Shown here: positions 320 through 61,970 of the stretch, piece after piece
Layout: every line of letters starts with the position of its first letter
How positions within the stretch are numbered: the first letter of the stretch is position 1
DNA from: Octopus vulgaris
Taxonomy: Eukaryota
DNA length: 64,000 nucleotides
Reading direction: 5' to 3'
Assembly (NCBI GenBank): GCA_951406725.2
Contig: OX597835.1
Location: 44,826,001-44,890,000, forward strand
Notes under the pieces: model-generated
What the model was told of the DNA's origin: nothing
Database searches by the model: none
The model's input: the letters and a program-made list of their open reading frames with translations, nothing else
Program-made: the position numbers and the translations under genes

Positions 320-512
320 TACGGAAATGTACTTGCATAGCAAGTGATTTGATCTGAGATCGTGTGCTGAAACGAAAACAATTGCAGCGTAGAAGGTGTT
401 TGTAAGCCATTTAAGAAACACACAAAAGCCATTCGATTCACTTCAACATTTAAGTTTAATTTGTCAAAATATTTTCGTCGCTTTAAGACCGCGGCCTATT
501 CACTGACAAAAA
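320..512 (-). mobile_element. ~190 bp hammerhead-bearing dispersed repeat (Penelope pLTR/retrozyme-like), copy 1
   Basis: Aligns by eye along its full length with 39018-39210. Both copies start at TACGGARATGTACTTGCATAGCAAGTG next to a dinucleotide microsatellite and end at CACTGACAAAA. Confidence 0.75.
460..510 (-). ncRNA. Minimal type I hammerhead ribozyme motif, G3.U8 variant (slightly decayed)
   Basis: Minus strand: UUUGUCA GUGAAUA G GCCGC ggucuuaaa GCGAC GAAA AUAU UU UGACAAA. Helix I is 7 bp, helix II has one mismatch, helix III is palindromic AAUAUU. Confidence 0.6.
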
Positions 513-3650: not shown

Positions 3651-3954
3651 GTGTCCTTTTAAACAATGAAAAATTGGAACGCCCACCAAAACCATGATAA
3701 TCTTTGAATTAAGCTGGGTAAATAAGATTTATCGAAGTTAAACAATCGTTACTTAATTATTCATTAATGTTTATCAAATGTTTTGTTAGTGAAAGTTCAA
3801 TGGAAGTGACATGATAATGTGAACTCATTTCTTTTCTAATGTCGTTCATATATTTGTCGGTGATGTACGTACGATACAGAAAATGGCGGAAGAATAAAAT
3901 CAGCGAACGCTATGTTCCATCAAATCATGACCTTGTTTTTTGTACAAAGAGAGC

Positions 3955-4737
3955 AATTACAAATGAGAGGTTAGTCGATCCCATCGTTCTCATTACCACA
4001 GCGGCACGGTATTTTATGAACCCATGAAAAATCAAAATCGACACCTACGGAAATTGAACTCAGTAACTAATGCATCAAAAGAAGTACATCAAGGTATTTT
4101 GTCTGACACTTTAGCGGTACTCGTTTTTTTTCTGTAGGCACAAGTCCCGAAATTTTGGGGGAAGGTGTCAATCGATTAGATTGACCCCAGTACGTAACTG
4201 GTACTTAATTTATCGACCACGGAAGGATGAAAGGCAAAATTAACCTCGGTGGAATTTGAAGTCAGAACGTAATGATTGACGAAATACCGTAAAGCATTGC
4301 GCCCGGCATACTAACGTTTCTTATTTCTTTATTGCCCACAAGGGGCTAAACGTAGAGGGGACAAACATGGACAGACAAAGGGATTGAGTTGATTACATCG
4401 ACCACGGTACGTGAATTGTACTTATTTAATCGACCCCGGAAGGATGAAAGGCTAAATCGACCTCATCGGAATTTGAACTCAGAACGTAACGGCAAGCGGA
4501 ATACCTATGTCTTTACTACCCACAAGGGGCTAAACACAGAGGGGACAAACAACGACAGACAAACGGATTAAGTCGATTACATCGACCCCAGTGTATCACT
4601 GGTACTTAATTTATCGACTCCGAAATGATGAAAGGCAAAGTCGACCTCGGCGGAATTTGAACTCAGAACGTAACGGCAGACGAAATACCTCTAAGCATTT
4701 CGCCCGGCGTGCTAATGTTTCTGCCGGCTCGCCGCCT
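3955..4737 (-). mobile_element. Cluster of 3-4 tandem SINE copies (family D, Nin-domain-like core)
   Basis: Repeated CTGGTACTTAATTTATCGACCCCGAAAGGATGAAAGGCAAAGTCGACCTCGGCGGAATTTGAACTCAGAACG. The tRNA-like B-box (GTTCAAATTCC on minus) and head GGCGGCGAGC end at ~4737. Confidence 0.85.
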
Positions 4738-4879
4738 CACGACACACTAGTGAAACTGACGTCGCATACAATCGCTAAGGTCGATGTCTTTTCATCGAGA
4801 GCCTAAATATTTGAAGAAAACTTTTTTTTAATCCGAGATGTAAAGAAACTTTTTTATAATAGTAGATGCAGTTTTCTGG

Positions 4880-5290
4880 TCTAATCATATAATAGAATTT
4901 CTCCTGTGGATCGTCGTTTCAATACGCTACGAGGTGCGAAATAATGGGATAATAATTTCGACATTTGACCACAAATTCGGATATCTGAGAAAATACCCAT
5001 ACTTATCCACATGGCTTTATGACCTTTTTCTTTGGCATTTTGGCTTCAGAATTATACCGCAACTGAGAAGGTGTTCAACGATGTTTGGATTCGGCACGCA
5101 ATCCTCATGAATAAGGAAATGGATCAAATATCCAATCGGGATATCTATGTTAATGATGTCCAGAAATCGTGATTCAAAGTTATTTGAAGCAATATTGAAA
5201 TGATTGCTGCAAAGGCACGCAACAAATGTCTAAAATTTCCTCTATAACACCAACCGGTTGTGCAAAATAATGCAAACCCTTCCGTAGGAC
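4880..5290 (-). pseudogene. Decayed hAT (Buster/Charlie-like) transposase C-terminal fragment
   Basis: Minus-strand translation fragments FESRFLDIINIDIP..WIFDPF and RYPNLWSNVEIIIPLFRTS resemble the RFxDxxxxxIPxWIxxPF and YPxLW...FPTSY motifs; frameshifts and stops are present. Confidence 0.5.
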
Positions 5291-6420: not shown

Positions 6421-8639
6421 TTTGCTTTTGAAATACATAATTTTGTTCTTAGAATATTCGCTTCGCCAATGATGCCGGGAGTGTTCTTTAAAACTCACGA
6501 AGAATATATTCTTCATCTGCAGATGTAGAGGATATCCTCTTCTTGTTAATTATTACAGTAAAGCATCCGTATATTATATTTAAATATCTTACAGATGCTA
6601 TCCATATATTGTATTTAGATATCTTACCTAAACTATTATTAATGCAATACAATGAAAAACCGTAGGCTGATTGTGTATGGAGAAAAAACTTCCGTTTACG
6701 AAATATTTAACCAATATTGCAATATTTCATTGATCTCTCCCACTCTGACTGTTTCAGCAAAACAGGTCACTTGCTCATAGTGCCAGCTCAGGTCGCTAAA
6801 AACTATGGTAAATACACAGTAATTACACACACATACATGTATCGTATAACTACATATCTTATGTAGGTGTATTCGTCATATTCGATGACTGTGGCCAGCG
6901 TATCTTGGTATGTATTCAGTTCATATTTAGGTCTAGATTGGTACGATATACAATATATGCGTTAACTAACTAAATAATAATTAACAGGAATAGGATATAT
7001 CTGGTACCCGCAAATGTAGACTAGATTCTTCAAGAAGTTCGAAGAACAATCCCGACATCATTGTTTTTATGTTGGCGATGGATGTATTCTAACAACAAAA
7101 GTTAACTTCGATAACTTTTTTTACAGACAACCTCATAATATCTTTCTAGTGGAACAATTGACTTTCTTTCAGTTGCCATGTATTTATTCATAAAGTATAA
7201 CCCTTAGGAGGAGAATTATATAGGCCTTCTTGTTCTGCGAACTTGTTTAAAATCAGATACAACTAACATATGCATTCACTTGAGACGAAGGTTTACAAAA
7301 TTCCAATTGAATGTTTTCTATAAGTTTCTATATCATGGATGGTGTAAAATTAGATGAAGCAGCGCAAATTAAATTTAAAAAAAAGAAAGAGTACAAAAGC
7401 AGAGGAAGCTACCATTGTAGGTGACAAGGTGATTCGATATGTTATATCAAAGGAAAATAAGAGAACCATTCCTATTGGACACATTTCAAACCGAAATAAC
7501 GAAATCGGCAAACATATATTTGTGCGCATATGTATTTCTATAGATACACATATACTCTCATCCACACGGACGAATATTTAAGCATGGATATATCTATGTT
7601 CTATATACATCAGCACACGGATACACACAAATACACGCATACATATATATCCATATATAACTGCGCTTACAGAAATGATAAAATTATGTTTGTACACACA
7701 GACACACACACATACGTGTATATATAACTATATCTATCTATATATATTTATATATACGTATACATATACGTATATGTGTGCGTCTGTGCGTGCGTGTGTG
7801 AGTGTGTGTATGTGTCTATGCGTGTGCGTGTGTGTGTGTGTGTCTATGTGTGTGTATAAATTTATATATGTATATATAAACATATATACATATATATGTA
7901 TCTATATATATATGCGTATATATATATGTGTGTTTGTGTGTGTATGTATGTATGTGTGTGTATGTATGTATGTGTGTGTGTGTATATACACGTAAATATA
8001 CGTAATAATATTTACACCAGATCTTGATATCAACCCAAACATACGCCTAAATATACACAAACAAATGCATAAACATCGAGCAATTGAAATATATTTTCTA
8101 TGAGTATCTGGGAGGGAGTGTTTTGGTCTGAGTTGTGTCGCAGATCCATTTATTTCAATGGCATCAAAACAACCAAAGCCTCGTAGCATTGAATTTTTAC
8201 AGACAAACAACATAGATCAGTTTCATAATATTATCTCTGGTGAATTCTGAAATGTGGAGAATATTTTCTTTGATGCCGCTATTTATTTTCCTTACAACAA
8301 CCTCCGTCTATATGAATAACAATTATTCTGTTTTCTATTTAATTGTCTGGCAGGCTAGATGGCTCGTTCATGTAAATCACAACTTGGAGATTCTATCATT
8401 ATCTATGTATCTTACCTTACAATATTTTGAAGTGATTTTGTTTCCTCCATCTCTCCTCCTATTTCAAAATTCTATGATTTTCTCTATCTCACTTCTCTCT
8501 CTCTCTCTGTCACCCTTTTCCCCTCCCTCTCTCTCTCAGTCAGTCGTTATATTATCTTATGTAAGAATGTATGTATTATCAATAGATCAGACTTTTGCAA
8601 AAAAATCATGACGATGTCTTTCCGCTGTGCAGTAAACGA

Positions 8640-9612
8640 GAGAGCTCAGTAAGGTCATAAAAAGCTGTAACTATTATGATTATCACGGTCGGGTTCCAAC
8701 CCGGGCCACAGCAGTGATGATAGACCGAGAAGTGTGACAGGTGGACGCACCAAAATTCTTGGTCCATCATCACGGTTTCTCGGTCCTAGATACATTCCAG
8801 GAAAAGGTCTGCGACCAAGTTATCGATGTAAGCGTAACGAAGTACGCTTCTGCTTACATCATCATGAAGAGGGTTCCACAAGATTAATTTTGATGCCTCC
8901 AAGTTCAGGTGGCGCCCTCTTTCACCAGATACTCGCTACCGTCTTTGCCTCTTTGCCTAATATTCTCGCTAACTTTTGGCTGCTCTCCATAAACGCATTC
9001 ATTTGTCATATATTGCTGTCATTTCACATTTAGTTACATTCGCAGTATCCTTGAGTAGCATCCATTTAACCTGTTTGATAATTTCTTTGTCAGCGTCCAT
9101 GTTTCACTGTCATATAATAATAGCACTGATTTGACAGTTGCAATGAACAGTTTGGTTTTGATTTGCCTGGAAATTTTGGAGTTTCAGATCTTTAGTTTGT
9201 GACAATCAGTCCATGTTTGTGCCTACCTGATCTTCATGTCTGCTTCCGAACTGCTCACCAAACCACTCAAGTATTTGAAGTCTTCAGCAACATCCAATTT
9301 GGAACCGCAGAACCGAAATAATTCAGCATCACACAATTCGTTGAAATACATACATTCCATTTTTTGGACATTTTTGAGCTGTCCAAGTATAGCAGTTGTG
9401 TCCACTCTCTGCTGAGCAGCACTTATGCTTGATCTGTTTCATTAGATGAGTGTTATATCATCTACGAAGTCTGGATCTGCGATTCTTACTGTTGCTATTC
9501 TCTGCGGTCTTTGCCAGTTTATGGTGAAACCAAGACCTTCCTCACTGTTGCACACAACCTGCCGAATTCCATAATCTAATACAAGTGCAAACAGGTAAGG
9601 TGCAATTCTGAC
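8640..9612 (-). mobile_element. 5'-truncated RTE-clade LINE (RT C-terminal half), pseudogenised
   Basis: IAPYLFALVLDYGIRQ...GLGFTI..QRPQRIATVRIADPDFVDDITLI (FADD motif), then EDFKYLSG and KTKLFIATVKSVLLY, with frameshifts. Confidence 0.85.
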
Positions 9613-18357: not shown

Positions 18358-18666
18358 CATCATCATCATCATGTGACCGACCAGTCCATCAGATGCAGTT
18401 AAACATCGCTGGTCACAATGCGTTTGCATTGTTTTAGCCTTCGAATGACGCCACCCCGCTGGCTAAGCGAGCAGGCCAACAGAAGAAAGAGTGGGAGAAA
18501 GAGTGGTGAAAGAGTACAGCAGGGATCACCATCCCGTGCCTGAGCGTCGTGGAGCTTTTAGGTGTTTTCGCTCAATAAACACTCACAACGCCCGGTCTGG
18601 GAATCGAAACCGTGATCCTACGACCGCGAGTCCGCTGCCCTAACCACTAGGCCATTGCGCATCCAC
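18358..18666 (-). mobile_element. tRNA(Arg)-like SINE, family B, with (GAT)n tail and TSD
   Basis: Reverse complement of 61672-61973; flanked by GTTATATATATATATAT on both sides. Confidence 0.9.
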
Positions 18667-18734
18667 GTTATATATATATATATACATATACATACACACA
18701 CACACAAACACACACATATATGTGTATTTGTTTA

Positions 18735-19088
18735 ATTGTTTCGGTCACTGAAGTGCAGCCATACTGGAGCACCGTTTGTAGTCCAAGAAATTGTAAGCTT
18801 AGTACTTATTCTGTCGGTCTCTTTTGCTGAACCGCTAAAGTACGGGACATAAACGCACCAACATGACGGGGGACTAAGACAAACATACACACATATACAC
18901 AAAAACGCATGCAGACACACACACACGACTGGTTTCTTTCAGTTTCCGTCCACCAAATCCTCTCACAATGCTTCGGTCGGATCGAGCCTATAGTAGAAGA
19001 AACCTGCCCAAGGTGCCATGCAGTGTGCCTGGACCTGGAACCATATGGTTAGTATAGCAGCTACTGACCACACAGCCACTGCCGCGCC
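18735..19088 (-). mobile_element. tRNA-derived SINE, family A
   Basis: Reverse-complement homolog of 32764-33180, more diverged. Confidence 0.85.
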
Positions 19089-19143
19089 TATGTATATATA
19101 TATATATAATACACACACACACACATATATATCTATAGATATA

Positions 19144-26759: not shown

Positions 26760-27550
26760 ATGTATATATATATATATTAGCATATCTACACGTATATATA
26801 TATATATAAACATATATATTTGCGTGTGTATATATAATTGCTACCGCACACTTCTACAATACAATGTGTATTGTGACTTCCTCGTTCTTCACGTTTTTTA
26901 CTCTCAATTTCCTTTTAAGAAAAGGAATGAAAGGAATCTAAAAATCTATTCAGGAAAGCTAAGTGATTTGGAAAAAAAAAAGTCTCTACGTATTTATATG
27001 TTTATTTATTTCTATTCTAAATACACGAATGTATTTTAATGTTTACCAGGAAATGTTGACAATGTCGGAAATTGTAAGCTGAGCTTAGTGTTCGTACATT
27101 CTACGTACATGATATTTTGCTGTGCCTATGGTTACTAAGATAAATTTGCGTCAAAGTCCGTCGTTTTCATCCTCCAAGGAGTCGAGAGTCATAACAAGAT
27201 GGAACTCATAAACAGAGACACTTTAGTTTTTAATTAATGACTGCCGCGACTCACCCATTAACGTCTATGTGCCGAAATAGTTTAATATTGTTATAATTTT
27301 GTTATTTTGAATCGTTTGGTTGTGTCAGTCATTGGACAACATCCATGCTGGGGCAACCAAATACTTGACAGGTTTTAGTTGAAAAGAAATTGGTCCGAAA
27401 ACTTATTTTGGTCCAACTTGCTGATTCGCTAAGTTGCGAGGACGTAGGGACAAACAAAATATAAGAGCATACACACTCACTCACACGCACACAGGCGTAC
27501 ATGCGCACACACGCACACACACACACACACACAATCATATATATATATAT

Positions 27551-27750
27551 TCTTTATTGCCCACAAGGGGCTAAACATAGAGGGGACAAACAAGGACAGA
27601 CAAAGGGATTAAGTCGATTACATCGACCCCAGTGCGAAACTGGTACTTTATTTATCGACCCCGAAAGGATGAAAGGCAAAGTTGACCTCGGCGAAATTTG
27701 AACTCAGAACGTAGCGACAGACGAAATACCGCTAAGCATTTCGCCCGGCA
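27551..27750 (-). mobile_element. Family D SINE, 5'-truncated, with long flanking duplication
   Basis: Matches 4510-4710. Flanks ~27474-27550 and ~27749-27815 are near-identical. Confidence 0.9.
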
Positions 27751-32059: not shown

Positions 32060-32215
32060 ATAATTTCAAATTTTGTCACAAGGTCAGCATTTTCTAGGGA
32101 GGATTACATTGACCCCAGTGTTCAACTGGTACATATTTTATCGACCCCCGAAAGGATAAAAAACGAAGTCGACCTCAATGGAATTTGAACTTAGAACGTG
32201 AAGACAGACTAAATG
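32060..32215 (-). mobile_element. Family D SINE fragment
   Basis: ATTGACCCCAGTGTTCAACTGGTACATATTTTATCGACCCCCGAAAGGAT..GTCGACCTCAATGGAATTTGAACTTAGAACG. Confidence 0.8.
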
Positions 32216-32763
32216 TAGTCTCAGATATATCATGTGTGTAAAGCAAAACAATAAAACAACGTCTGTTGAAATGCGAAAGATCATAGGAAATCTGCTTGAT
32301 CAAAGCTGACAAGCGGTTTCATAAAAAGTGTCCTCAGAGATAATAGAGTTGAAAAAGCAAAAGAGTGTTTCCGTTACTAAATTCCATGGATATTCAACGT
32401 TAACCGAAGGTTCTCAGTGCATTATAAATTTTATTACATCTGTGGTATCCGTGCGTATCTAAATAAGTATTTAAGCTTGAAAGTAAAATGAAGCAGACAG
32501 AATTATTATGCAAACAACCCGGACATCATTAGTTCCTGAATGGTAGAATTAATCAACCAAAAGATTTAACTCTTTCTTGTGGCATCCACTCTGTTGCAAG
32601 AACGAAATCCAGTTATGGACACTTACGCATGCGCTGCTCCCTACATTAGCAAACAACCAGTTATCGTTCCTTCCTAACCAAACCCATTTCAGAAATCACG
32701 AATGTGTTATGAGCGAGGTTCTCATCTCCGTCAAAATATTTTTATAAAATCAATCAAGATATA

Positions 32764-33180
32764 GGCGCAGGAGTGACTGTGTGGTAAGTAGCCTGTCTAC
32801 CAACCACATGGTTCCGGATTCAGACCCACTGCGTGGCACCTTGGGCAAGTGTCTTCTACTATAGCCTAGCCTCGGGCCGACCAAAGCCTTGTGAGTGGAT
32901 TTGGTAGACGGAAACTGAAAGAAGCCCGTCGTATATATGTATATATATGTATGCATGTGTGTGTTTGTGTGTCTGTGTTTGTCCCTCTAGCATTGCTTGA
33001 CAATCGATGCTGGTGTGTTTATGTCCCCGTCACTTAGCGGTTCGGCAAAAGAGACCGATGGAATAAGTACTGGGCTTACGAAAGAATAAGTCCCGGGGTC
33101 GAGTTGCTCGATTAAAGGCGGTGCTCCAGCATGACCGCAGTCAAATGACTGAAACAAGTAAAAGAGAAAGAGATAAAAGA
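32764..33180 (+). mobile_element. Full-length tRNA-derived SINE, family A (internal microsatellite, AAAAGAG-type tail)
   Basis: A-box TGACTGTGTGGTAAG, B-box GGATTCAGACCC; at least 6 further copies in the window. Confidence 0.92.
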
Positions 33181-37271: not shown

Positions 37272-37478
37272 ATATATATATATATATATATGGGCACAGG
37301 AGTGGCTGTGTGGTAAGTAGCTTGCTTGCCAACCACATGGTTCCGGGTTCAGTACCACTGCGTGGCACCTTGGGCACGTGTCTTCTACTATAGCCTCGGG
37401 CCGACCAATGTGACCAATGTGAGTGGATTTGGTAGACGGAAACTGAAACAAGTAAAAGAGTAAAACAGTAAAAAGAGT
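37272..37478 (+). mobile_element. Family A SINE with internal deletion
   Basis: Head identical to 32764 copy and joined directly to the tail at ACTGAAA. Confidence 0.9.
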
Positions 37479-38540: not shown

Positions 38541-38650
38541 TTTACTTGTTTCAGTGCTGTCTTTTGTCGAACAAACCGACCCCAGGACTTATTCTTTGTA
38601 AGCCTAATACTTATTCTATCGATCTCTTTTCCGGAACTGCTAAGAATAAG
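38541..38650 (-). mobile_element. Family A SINE 3' fragment
   Basis: TTTACTTGTTTCAGT..GACCCCAGGACTTATTCTTTGTAAGCCTAATACTTATTCTATCGATCTC. Confidence 0.8.
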
Positions 38651-39017
38651 GAGAAATTAAAATTACTGGCTGCTTTCATAGCAAGTTGATGCTGGTTGTT
38701 TATCATGTCCCCTTCCGACTCGAGATCATGCAGTTGGAAAAACTGCTTTATTTATGGGATGACACATATATGTCATTTATGGGGTGACACAGGAAATATA
38801 GATATGTGTGTGTGTGTGCGTGCGTACTATATTCATTTACTCATTAAAATATAGATATTCACAAACAGAAAATATATATACATATGTACGTATGAATATA
38901 TGTATATATTTATGTATGGATATATGTAGGTGTGAGAATGTGTGTGAGTGTCTGCGTGTATATATATATGTGTGTGTATGTGTGTGTGTGTGTGCGAGTG
39001 TGAGTGTGTGTGTGTTT

Positions 39018-39210
39018 TACGGAGATGTACTTGCATAGCAAGTGACCTGATCTGAGATCGTGTGCTGGAACGAAACCAATTGCAGCGTGGAAGTTGTTTA
39101 TAAGCCACTTTAAAATACACAAGTACCGTTAGATTCACTTCAACATTTAAATTTAATTTGTCAAAATATTTTCGTCGCTTTGAGACCGCGACCTGTTCAC
39201 TGACAAAATT
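39018..39210 (-). mobile_element. ~190 bp hammerhead-bearing dispersed repeat, copy 2
   Basis: Homologous to 320-512 with the same boundaries. Confidence 0.8.
39157..39207 (-). ncRNA. Minimal type I hammerhead ribozyme motif, G3:C8 variant (intact)
   Basis: UUUGUCA GUGAACA G GUCGC ggucucaaa GCGAC GAAA AUAU UU UGACAAA. Helix I is a perfect 7 bp, helix II is 5 bp, helix III is palindromic. Confidence 0.75.
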
Positions 39211-39262
39211 CCGTGCTGCATAAACACACACACACACACACATACGCACACACACACACATA

Positions 39263-42622: not shown

Positions 42623-44769
42623 TAAATAGATAGATCAAATGAACGAGAGAGATTGAGAAAGTGAACGAGAGTGAGAGAGAGAGAGGGAGGGGATGAGATA
42701 GAGAAACAGAAATAGAGTGGGAGATGGAAGTGAGAGAGAGAGGATATTACCAACTGTTTGACCACTTGCAACAAATATGCACATGCGCAGAACAAACACC
42801 GTTCCGGTTGGTTTCTTGCGCTAAGCAATTATTAAATCTTTAGATGGCAGTAACTCCTTCATACATGGAAATTATTCCGCTAATATTCAACTTCCTTCGT
42901 ATTTAAATAATGCATCCGCCAGTATTTTTTCTTTTGTAAAATCGTTTCCTTTATGATTTCTGTTTTTATTGCTTCGTTTTCCGTTATATATGGAATTTGG
43001 TTTTGTTATAACCGTTGGCAACCTTTTCTACTTTCTTTTCCTTCTTAAAATTTTGCAAGGGAGATAACCGGTGCAACACTACAGCACACGTGACGTGAAT
43101 AAATATAAACTGTAAGTGCAGAATGTATATTAAGGCATATAAGAATGCGTACATCAATACAGGTATAAACACATATTTATAGACATATATAATTAGTCTG
43201 ACACACGCACACAGACACACAGGCATACATACACACATACATATATATATATAGATACATTATATTTACGCAGACACACATATAAGAATTTTGCTTTACA
43301 GTCGTGTTTTCTGGCTTCTACTGCAATGTATAACCCATTGCACTAATCACTTTTCGTCTGATGTCAGCAGGGACACTTTCAGAGGTTGCGTGCAGGTAGG
43401 TTTTGTTGTTTGGTTTTCATACGACTAATAACCAGACAGCTTTTGTTGTTCATCACTGGGTCATGTGTTTTTTTAGTGTTCTGATTTCTGTCAGACAGAA
43501 CCCAAATACTAGGCAGACAATTATCTCCAGACCTGAGCAGTTGAACTTAAAGTGTGCTGTGGTTCTCCCTGGTTTCATTTGGATGTTGTTTGCCGAATCA
43601 ACTTTTAGTTTGGACCTACAAGCTTTATGTTTCTTTCTTTCCAGTTTTTAAAATTTTTTTATCGTATTTGTGACTTGAGTATTCCTACTCCTATTTCAGT
43701 GGAACGGCAAATGTAGCTGTTTTTCTGTGTAACCTCAATGACTGCAACAATAATTTATCTTATCTTGTTACTTTGATATTTGTTTCTGCGTTTAAGAATT
43801 CTGGTAGACTTGTCTGCTAACCTTGATCATTCGTTTCTATTTTTACTGTTTAATCGTTGATCTTTATGTATACGTGTACTTCCTGGGGCCATAGGAAAGA
43901 TCTTTTATTCTTTTCAATCTTGGAATTACGCATAGTTTTAAGTTGTCAGAATGAAGATTTCATTCTTTGTAACTCCTATTCTTAAATCTTATATTCCATT
44001 CTAGTTATACTTTTATTTACGTTTTACATTTTCTTTCAGTTTTGCGTTCGTCATTATCCGTGGGTGTTCTAAGACTTGCATTTGACGTGTCTTGTTATTT
44101 ATTTATTGATTTTGCAAATGGTGCTTATATCTCAGTGGTATACATTCTGAACGTTTTCTTTGTTGAGTTTTGTTGTGATTTTCGCATGAGTTTTCATCAT
44201 TCTTTCATTACTTTTTACATATGTTTCTATTACACATTATTCCATTTAACTCTCATATTTCAATCTCTAATGTCTAGTTTTCGTTTTAAAAATTTATCTT
44301 CATAAGTTCGATAACCTGCTCCTGTCAAGTGTTACATTTCCCTGTTAGCTTTTGCAGCTTGTTATTTCTCTATTTCTTCTTATTGGACTGGGGATCATTG
44401 TTTCTCTAAAATATTCATGGAGAATTAAAAAGAATTCCTCCTGTGTTTCTTTCCGACGTTTTCTGTTTTAGTTACGTGACTTGAAATGTAAAGACCGATA
44501 ATTTGTATAGATTTTCCATAATTTTCGTCGGGTACGCTTACTGTCAATATTGGCACGTATGATCTCTCCGTCTCTTTTTTGGCTCTCATCAAAACTATTC
44601 AGCCATTATCATTCAACTTGTACTGAATTTTATATGAAATGCTGGTTAATTTTTGCTGGTGGATGGTGGGTGGACGGATCGGTTTGTTATCGATATAGTG
44701 CATGTAGCAGTAGACTGTTTACGCCTGGCGGACATTACAGAATTACCTGAATATTTGAAATCCTGTTTC

Positions 44770-45147
44770 CTTTTTTACTTGTTTCAGTCATTTGACTGCG
44801 GCCATGCTGGAGCACCGCCTTTAATCGAGCAAATCGACCCCGGGGCTTATTCTTTGTAAGCCCAGTACTTATTCTATCAGTCTCTTTTGCCGAACCGCTA
44901 AGTGACGGGGACGTAAACACACCAGCATCGGTTGTCAAGCAATGCTATGGGGACAAACACACATACACACATATATATATGCATATATACGACAGGCTTC
45001 TTTCAGTTTCCGTCTACCAAATCCACTCACAAGGCATTGGTCGGCCCGGGGCTATAGCAGGAGACACTTGCCCAAGGTGCCACGCAGTGGGACCGAACCC
45101 GGAACCATGTGGCTGGTTAGCAAGCTACTTACCACACAGCCACTCCT
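44770..45147 (-). mobile_element. Near full-length family A SINE
   Basis: Reverse complement of 32764-33165 at high identity. Confidence 0.92.
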
Positions 45148-53454: not shown

Positions 53455-53913
53455 AAATTTAAAGAAAACAGAAAATGGAGAATGAACAACAATTGACTTA
53501 CATAAATTATTATTTATTAATTCTATATAAATAGACTGCATCACATCTAACAGCTGTTCCTTCTTCCAGTGTTGTATGGTATGCTAAAAATATTTATATT
53601 TATTACTGAAACCGATTTGAAACATGGAGCTTCTTCAGAGGGAAGAATACATATAAAAAGAAGAGCCTTTTTCTTGTCTAGGGTCTTAGATTTTATTTAT
53701 TTTTCACTCTAATGAAGCTCCATGTTTCATATGGGTTTCATTACCAAATTTGGTAAATAGTTTTAGCATATAAATGGGAATGCCATACAACATCGAAGCA
53801 GAAACAGCTGTTAGATGGGATGCAGTCTATTTGTATTGAATTAATAAATAATAATTGATGTAAGTCAATTGTTGTTCATTAATATTTCTCCATTGTTTGC
53901 TTTCTTTAAATTT
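53455..53913. mobile_element. ~460 bp palindrome: two inverted Penelope-like terminal repeats with long-helix-II hammerheads
   Basis: 53455-53655 is the reverse complement of 53690-53913. Cores CUGAAGAAGCUCC (-) and CUAAUGAAGCUCC (+); both end G(A/G)AACAGCUGUUAGAUG. Confidence 0.8.
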
Positions 53914-57155: not shown

Positions 57156-58008
57156 TATGATGTACTCAAAAGTAACCGGAAACGCTGTCTGTAGGTGAAG
57201 CCTGTTGTTGTTGTTCGGACTTCCAAAGCTAGAAGACACATTGATGCGACTATCAGGCACGTGTCTGCCGATCGGAGTCTTCAGTTAAGGTCGCATTGCA
57301 ACCTGGTGCGTTCTTGTTTTGCAGCGCTTCTACTCTATCCCTCGCTGTTCTGAAACAATTGTCATGCTTGAAACAGCTTAGAAGGACGCTTCTATGAGCA
57401 AAACACAAGTTTACGAGGGGTTCCCATGCTTTGGGAGTGGCCACTTGTCCCTTGAATAACAATCTCGTTTTGCACGACCGTCCATTTTCCGGAGGAAATA
57501 AAACATCATGCATATTCGTGACCTGATCTTGGAGTACAGTCACAGAACAATTGACAAGCATGTTGATATGGCTGCTGTGTCCTGGAACTCCTACCAACGA
57601 ATTTTGTGCGAGGAATTGCGAATGAAAAATGATGCATCAAAATTTGCTCCTCGTTTGCTGAAGAGAGGTTGGAAGCAATCACGACTGAATGCGTGTCATG
57701 AACTGAAAGACCATTTGGAAGTTGATCAGGACCTGTTTTCTAAAGTCCTCATTGGTCACGAATGCTGGCGCTATGGAATTTGCAGATGCGGAAAAGGTGA
57801 AGAAAAAAATTTTAAAAAACGACGGCAGGTGTTAAAAGGTATCATTTAGCAAGAATTCCAGGAGTGCTTTGAACAGTGGAGAATGAGCCTGGACGGATGC
57901 TCTCTGCTTGAAATGGAGAACACTTTGACGGCGATAAAAGTGTAAACATTTATACTAAGTTGATAAAATAATACTGCAAAATTCCAGTTTTCTTTTTGGT
58001 ACCCCATA
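57156..58008 (+). mobile_element. Internally deleted mariner element
   Basis: ORF 57508-57849 QRILCEELRMK..ASKFAPRLL..QSRLNACHEL..DQDLFSKVLIGHECWRYG (WVPHEL-like and GDExW motifs), C-terminal FQECFEQW; imperfect TIRs GTACTCAAAAGTAACCGGAA / TTCCAGTTTTCTTTTTGGTAC flanked by TA. Confidence 0.85.
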
Positions 58009-61621: not shown

Positions 61622-61671
<50 letters not shown>

Positions 61672-61674
<3 letters not shown>

Positions 61675-61970
61675 AGGCGCAATGGCCCAGTGGTTAGAGC
61701 AGCGGATTCGCGGTCTTAGGATTGCGGTTTCGATTCCCAGACCGGGCGTTGTGAGTGCTTATTGAGCGAAAACACCTAAATCTCCATGAGGCTCCGGCAG
61801 GGGATGGTGGTGATCCCTGCTGTACTCTTTCGCCACAACTTTCTCTCACTCTTTCTTCTGTTGGCCTGCTCGCCTAGCCAGCGGGGTGGCGTCATTTGGA
61901 GGCTAAAACAATGCGAAGCGCATTGTGACCAGCGATGTGTAGCAACATCCAATGGCCTGGTCGGTCATGT

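Follow-up and report, generated by a model that had tools for sequence, protein, structure and literature searches.

What are the two short units, each headed by a hammerhead ribozyme motif, that lie on the minus strand of a 64-kb stretch of the Octopus vulgaris genome (contig OX597835.1, positions 44,826,001 to 44,890,000; hereafter the window), and how did they get there? A first reading, made from the sequence alone, had described a mobile unit of 190 bp with an intact G3:C8 hammerhead and no ORF, and had proposed a non-autonomous ribozyme-headed retroelement or a solo pLTR. The answer touches on questions that are open for Penelope-like elements in general: whether the sense or the antisense RNA is the template, where solo pLTRs originate and what role the hammerhead plays.

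Two hammerhead-headed copies and their family

Positions 320-511 and 39018-39208 of the window align over 192 nt with 89% identity (E 7e-66), both on the minus strand, and the hammerhead is the first part of both copies, as the sequence-only reading had it. The 3' end abuts (TA)n in copy A (320-512) and A(CA)n in copy B (39018), likewise in agreement with that reading. Of the two boundaries said to be common to the copies, the 3' boundary is; the 5' boundary differs, since the right copy, B, reaches 39221, 11 nt past the earlier limit of 39210. The absence of an ORF is correct in that none is complete, but the last 92 nt of the unit encode the first 30 residues of the reverse transcriptase (RT)-endonuclease ORF of a parent element described below, and the left copy, A, still reads MAYKHLLRCNCFRFSTRSQIKSLAMQVHFRN. 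The start codon position holds GTG in copy B and ATG in the family. Coordinates are collected in Table 1.

Table 1. Features of the two short copies in the 64-kb window
Feature	Position	Strand	Basis or remark
Short copy A	320..512	-	about family position +14 to the long end, then (TA)n; ATG at 410-408
Short Penelope-like copy B	39017..39221	-	family position +3 to the long (tail) end; alignment, family ends
Target sequence 3' of copy B, rich in (CA)n/(TA)n, outside the element	38870..39016	-	sequence
First ~30 codons of the parent RT/GIY-YIG ORF in copy B	39017..39108	-	sequence compared with parent
Tail, ~59 nt between short (+143 to +152) and long (+198 to +209) 3' ends	39017..39075	-	family ends; PMC11167929
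Predicted minimal type I hammerhead, copy B	39157..39207	-	sequence, fold, family conservation
Stem I (7 bp)	39207-39201 with 39163-39157	-	UUUGUCA / UGACAAA
Core G3-A9, GUGAACA	39200-39194 (C8 at 39195)	-	sequence
Extra G after A9	39193	-	sequence
Stem II (5 bp)	39192-39188 with 39178-39174	-	GUCGC/GCGAC
G12-A15.1, GAAA	39173-39170	-	sequence
Palindromic AATATT (AAUAUU in RNA)	39170-39165	-	sequence
U17, predicted cut after it	39164	-	sequence

How widespread is the unit? The copy number, which the first reading had proposed to determine, was obtained with a 24-mer lying 3' of the ribozyme: the genome (2.8 Gb, 227 contigs) holds 15,525 matches when one mismatch is allowed (control: 0), a figure that counts arms, one inverted insertion being counted twice. 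As a repeat, the short unit is an ordinary part of the genome. The whole ribozyme is matched exactly 520 times with an older version of loop II and 1,790 times with a younger one. Ends and conservation were read from the first 100 exact 24-mer matches listed, all on contig C1, with the anchor outside the ribozyme and each arm aligned to the parent, in which +1 denotes the A of AGATG; all locus samples are the first listed places on contigs C1-C2.

In copy B the lowest-energy fold consists of stems I and II (z -2.6; not one of 200 shuffled sequences reaches its stability). Both window copies have G3 and an additional G behind A9, as first reported. The G3:C8 hammerhead is indeed intact in copy B but not in copy A, which retains G3 and in which position 8 (window 498) is U and stem II contains a C-A mismatch; its lowest-energy fold is a different hairpin. 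The proposal that G3 is a family trait stands: among the 67 arms that cover the ribozyme G3 occurs in 66, C8 in 64 and both in 63, all 11 core positions are intact in 56, and the core together with both stems in 50. A 2-nt loop prevents stem III from closing within a monomer, and pairing through AAUAUU is weak (-0.2 kcal/mol). The motif is predicted to be a minimal type I hammerhead that would cut slowly after U17 as a dimer through AAUAUU. Since the part of the core that precedes the cut site is retained in the copies, the RNA that served as their template was uncut, as with the lizard element.

Searched against Rfam, the ribozyme alone gave no hammerhead match even at E up to 10, so the hammerhead is called here from its anatomy and from comparison, not from a library match. 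The whole window gave 404 Rfam matches at E up to 1, and the 150 of these that were listed are all microsatellite look-alikes below the cut-offs. Because Rfam does not see the G3:C8 core, ribozyme censuses would undercount such families.

Which of these traits are new? An extra base at 9/10.1 and a palindromic stem III are standard for Penelope-like hammerheads (PMC4209133); the extra G after A9, the palindromic stem III and the tail are already known Penelope traits. The natural covariation at 3:8 described there is U3:A8 (Cervera and de la Pena 2014, PMC4209133; Perreault 2011, PMC3088659), C3 and G8 are found in every core listed in File S2 of PMC8557442, and an engineered C3G/G8C exchange partly restores cleavage (PMC11167929; PMC8495972). 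In the literature searched we found no natural G3:C8 hammerhead, although Lunse et al. 2017, on hammerhead variants of Penelope-like elements, may cover it. The G3:C8 core indicates that nature keeps the 3:8 pairing and not its letters.

The parent Penelope-like element

Where does the unit come from? The route to its parent led through the loose ends of RNA reads, which showed a common extension upstream of the unit. A 27-mer across the start and this upstream sequence has 1,002 matches in the genome, and the extension, followed further, crosses about 1 kb of (CATA)n-rich sequence and arrives at the stop of an ORF with a terminal GIY-YIG domain. Of 30 loci anchored on the ORF, with a flank of 1.5 kb, 26 have the unit at a distance of about 1 kb past the ORF stop; in the remaining four it lies outside this flank or is absent from it. 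A search with the 5' stretch of the ORF found 26-27 places in the genome, and in 8 of 27 loci (L195, L196, L197, L200, L211, L213, L214, L215) unit or tail is continuous with the ORF N-terminus, which bears out the suspected attachment to a Penelope RT/GIY-YIG ORF. The unit, which follows the ORF stop at about 1 kb and runs into the ORF N-terminus, thus represents the junction between pLTR and ORF in an endonuclease-containing Penelope-like element and comprises hammerhead, start codon, 30 codons and a 59-nt tail. We are nearly certain that the short unit derives from this autonomous element of the same genome. Both loop II versions of the short copies are also found in ORF-linked copies, the young one in L182 and L143 and the older one in L200, L214 and L215.

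A complete arrangement is that of L182 (contig C4:22952000-22961900), where an inverted truncated copy of 3 kb is followed by a 1.1-kb pLTR, the ORF (with stops), a second pLTR and the tail; the two pLTRs (3804-4921 and 8081-9182) are 98% alike. An inverted 5'-truncated copy is present in L143 as well as in L182, and 18 inverted pairs occur among the 100 arms. The reading frame P0002, from L179, has 1,025 open codons and lacks the N-terminus. Its residues 915-1005 match PF01541 (GIY-YIG) over the cut-off (E 1.8e-5); RT motifs were recognised by eye, and the Pfam RT profile gave no match to P0002 at E 0.1. Named homologues of the parent protein are labelled reverse transcriptase domain proteins, the best being a hypothetical protein of Octopus vulgaris (57%). 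Among the ORF copies read none is intact from start to stop, L182 having stops and L179 lacking the N-terminus. The parent protein is predicted to measure about 1,080 aa and to contain a long insert that separates RT motifs. Its linker contains CQSNCAVC, seven residues and a C four residues before the GIY-equivalent, in addition to CCHH residues, and thereby resembles the Nematis rows in Fig. S2 of PMC8557442 (CX2-5CxxC linker, short spacer, CCHH), unlike the long Neptune spacer; by this by-eye reading the parent is likely to be of Nematis type. In sum, the traits of endonuclease-containing Penelope-like elements found here are an ORF with RT and C-terminal GIY-YIG domain, pLTRs, an inverted truncated copy, a tail and a hammerhead in the pLTR.

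The solo-pLTR alternative of the sequence-only reading therefore came close, as the unit is a Penelope-like pLTR tip plus tail, but it represents only the last ~205 nt of a pLTR of about 1.1 kb, overlaps the start of the ORF and has an autonomous parent in the genome. A fragment of an unrelated DNA transposon or a MITE was dropped as a candidate, since the inverted arms vary in length and junction where such an element would have terminal inverted repeats of constant length, and since the unit belongs to an RT element. Two other leads were also abandoned. A full-length element at L141, proposed from two direct repeats, is a local duplication of 3.5 kb without an ORF, and a search for the pLTR by way of the GIY-YIG family gave 30 loci of other Penelope families, none with the unit as its pLTR; at one of these (L109) a unit copy lies nearby through insertion.

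A fixed start and the origin of the short copies

Why do so many copies begin and end at the same places? The 3' ends of the 100 arms are short (+143 to +152) in 48 cases, long (+198 to +209) in 50 and elsewhere in two, and 17 of the 18 head-to-head pairs combine one long with one short arm. From the two 3' ends two sites of reverse-transcription start may be inferred; the tail is explained likewise in PMC11167929. At the other side, 52 arms have their 5' end at -5 to +9, one is at -12, where it aligns via the inverted arm, and only four extend 13 nt or more upstream of the start. With five of six arms removed that stem from one segmental duplicate, 47 of 95 remain at the fixed start. The 5' ends of another 43 arms lie at +11 to +116, so that many copies never reach the start.

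Could the short units be ordinary 5' truncations that began at the 3' pLTR and stalled at a structure or at (CATA)n, with the G described below arising from template switching at the near-palindrome TCTCAGA? Truncation combined with inversion is usual in such elements (PMC8557442), 43 of 100 arms stop within the unit, and some copies begin CTGAGATG (L283, L289, L317). Yet the wall stands at +1, about 24 nt before the repeat tract, and the drop-off rate within the unit, estimated by hand, predicts that about 50 of 57 arms should pass -13, where four were observed. Moreover, the sister family lacks such a wall: its 5' ends are spread, 16 of 30 copies running at least 148 nt upstream of the ribozyme, and the fixed start is therefore not a general result of truncation. 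As the palindrome also fails to account for a G that follows (TA)n or a unique target duplication, we consider this explanation improbable.

The base before +1 is the second distinctive trait. In the parent it is C; 933 copies have another base, and among the 100 of these 933 that were listed it is G in 83, A in nine and T in eight. In 70 fetched loci G was found in 26 of 31 solo and 32 of 39 inverted copies, with unrelated flanks before it. At six loci (L236, L378, L380, L390, L400, L307) the G stands between the duplicated target and the unit and is absent from the other target copy; at three (L232, L239, L397) it also occurs within the target duplication. The proportion of 83 in 100 therefore overstates untemplated G, as G also occurs in some target duplications and may derive from the inverted arm in many inverted copies. 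In LINE-1 insertions an untemplated 5' G is a known trace of a copied cap, and the G at the fixed start is likely to be such a trace here. In the literature searched we found no report of cap-copied short pLTRs.

In the parent, TATATAT lies at about -30 to -24 and an initiator-like TCAGAT spans +1, and similar TATA and initiator motifs have been noted in a rotifer pLTR (PMC3846280). From the DNA we infer +1 to be the transcription start. The bases just before the start also look like a 3' splice site, with a branch-point-like CTAAC, a pyrimidine run and CAG immediately 5' of ATGCAGCAC, and the motif is acceptor-like at +1 to +2; furthermore, the intron of the D. virilis Penelope ends at helix I (PMC4209133). 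The fixed 5' end might accordingly mark a splice acceptor, the copies being made from spliced RNA with a very short or lost first exon. Against this, the copies retain the AG that splicing removes, no common upstream exon is found and the sequences that flank the G differ from copy to copy. Because the copies keep the AG, the idea that an intron ends at the unit start was dropped as the best reading, and a splice site as the cause of the fixed end is highly improbable.

Do the short units, finally, replicate as a family of their own? A non-autonomous family, SINE-like or retrozyme-like, would be transcribed and recopied in trans by the protein of the parent. Short arms exceed ORF 5' ends several hundred-fold and their ends are fixed, the D. 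virilis Penelope has an internal promoter (PMC2377424), so that the unit could keep its own, and retrozymes have been argued to derive from pLTRs (bioRxiv 10.64898/2026.07.22.740005). Rare tandem arrays, which are described below, point in the same direction. On the other hand, both loop II versions occur in ORF-linked copies too, the units lack a TATA-like run upstream of +1, and they lack the stretch of about 55 nt of ORF beyond the start sites that the anole element needs (PMC11167929). Nor do short copies share flanks beyond segmental duplicates, and no head-to-tail joint was seen among the rows listed for the RNA run X24. Nothing shows the unit to replicate as a separate family, and we regard this reading as unlikely, if less so than truncation.

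Tandem arrays, for which a check had been suggested, are absent among the 100 sampled arms, where no head-to-tail units occur, and one was encountered by another route. On contig C28, L215 (1-1314) and L214 (994-1773) hold at least eight short arms head to tail, with (TA)n and a common 10-nt spacer between them, a possible seed of a retrozyme-like array; each of the two loci also holds a unit that continues through about 190 nt of the ORF. At inverted junctions in L061 (1172-1692) and L402, incomplete pieces of the ribozyme (about 100 and 64 nt) are repeated in tandem, which suggests repeated template switching. Copies have also been multiplied with their surroundings: on contig C17 (L009-L017, L027-L029) a single insertion recurs in a larger duplication with 7.2-kb spacing, and on contig C1 (L304, L341, L342, L346, L347, L351) one insertion recurs with more than 1.2 kb of common flank.

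How, then, would most short copies have formed? They are probably dead-end cDNAs of the first ~146 or ~205 nt of the capped RNA of the element, as judged from their ends and from the G. RNA polymerase II would start at the fixed A in the upstream pLTR, 23 nt before G3, directed by the TATA-like run at about -30 and TCAGAT. The element protein would nick AT-rich DNA, and reverse transcription would begin inside the RNA at one of two sites within the first 30 codons. From the junction close to the RNA 5' end, only 146-205 nt would have to be copied, so that the cap would be reached and often copied as an extra G. The cDNA could then join the target or switch strand, giving rise to solo units with target-site duplications or to head-to-head pairs of a long and a short arm. 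A start at the downstream junction would lead to ordinary 5'-truncated or full-length copies. The hammerhead stayed uncut in the RNAs that gave short copies; in the anole work, ribozyme cleavage is not needed for insertion and two internal start sites explain the tail (PMC11167929).

A fixed start together with an untemplated G speaks for a sense template that was capped, and it would lend genomic support to the internal initiation shown in vitro with one lizard element. It could further be imagined, though we hold this only tentatively, that all these traits belong to one account: some 15,000 fossils of a Penelope RT that starts in its own capped sense mRNA near the 5' end and copies the cap, a promoter mapped from DNA, solo pLTRs left behind as a side product of initiation inside the RNA, and, for the first time in nature, a G3:C8 hammerhead shared by a whole family, in a genome that also has C3:G8 and U3:A8 cores and a thriving sister family with A9 changed to C.

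RNA reads, related families and known systems

In a raw RNA run (X24; 6% read; possibly from another species than that of the genome) 1,684 reads contain the unit, with first mates about equally on both strands, and 86% continue into unlike sequence. Among the rows listed no piles of starts or ends and no head-to-tail joint were seen, in this 6% of a run whose standard library would miss short RNAs. The pattern is as expected if copies were read through as part of host transcripts, and it lends no support to circles; a capped short RNA it neither shows nor excludes.

The sister family (P0003), which is 54% identical, has a C3:G8 core and stem II GUCAC/GUGAC, so that between the two families the 3:8 pair and one stem II pair are changed on both sides. 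Two 3' ends recur there as well, the long one at the homologous codon. The sister ribozyme has 5,454 matches, and in 97 of the 100 listed A9 is C (core CUGAUGC), suggesting that fast cleavage is not needed to spread. This family, seen for example at L191 (7887-8090, contig C15), is abundant and apparently young, and its frame of 1,312 codons includes a long insert rich in asparagine, as has been reported for rotifer Penelopes. Another Penelope group, with open frames of 781 codons (L087, L092) and a long linker of Neptune type, has a U3:A8 hammerhead-like motif downstream of its GIY-YIG matches (L088, L090, L091, L094, L099, L105). Together the three families would provide this genome with C:G, U:A and G:C versions of the 3:8 pair.

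How does the octopus family compare with known systems? As in other endonuclease-containing Penelope-like elements (Craig et al. 2021, PMC8557442; Arkhipova et al. 2013, PMC3846280), there are an ORF with RT and C-terminal GIY-YIG domain, pLTRs that include the first codons and carry TATA- and initiator-like motifs, an inverted 5'-truncated copy, an optional tail, (TA)n targets and solo pLTRs. In contrast to these, the tail measures about 59 nt instead of the usual 30-40, the 3' region is about 1 kb long and (CATA)n-rich, and the short copies that predominate share a single fixed start and an extra G. The rotifer paper ascribes some solo pLTRs to recombination or deletion and raises an antisense template (PMC3846280). 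Poseidon of Anolis carolinensis (Frangieh et al. 2024, PMC11167929) likewise has its ORF start at or near the hammerhead, two internal start sites and an uncut RNA template, but its natural core is C3:G8, C3G/G8C being only an engineered partial rescue, whereas the octopus family is naturally G3:C8. The minimal hammerheads of Penelope-like elements (PMC4209133, PMC3088659) are also of type I, with an extra nucleotide at 9/10.1, G10.1-C11.1, palindromic 15.2-16.2 and mostly single motifs from truncated elements, the natural covariation there being U3:A8 instead of G3:C8. Non-LTR retrozymes (PMC7229834; bioRxiv 10.64898/2026.07.22.740005) share the small size, the non-coding character, the type I hammerhead and the link to Penelope-like pLTRs, but are defined by tandem units and circular RNA, whereas the octopus copies are solo or head to head and contain an ORF start.

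The window holds further repeats. Positions 505-614 and 1280-1392 form another, inverted repeat (81% alike) that directly adjoins copy A at its 5' end. A dispersed repeat that is very common, reaches up to 400 nt and is likely a SINE occurs at 32759-33169, 37288-37452, 44767-45147, 18728-19091 and 38561-38644 and also in many of the loci. Further repeat families, and an imperfect palindrome of 460 nt, are found at 4172-4722, 27550-27750, 32102-32214, 18374-18666 with 61671-61967, and 53455-53913. Finally, a stop-to-stop frame of 115 codons on the plus strand (57502-57849) presumably resembles a fragment of a mariner-type transposase.
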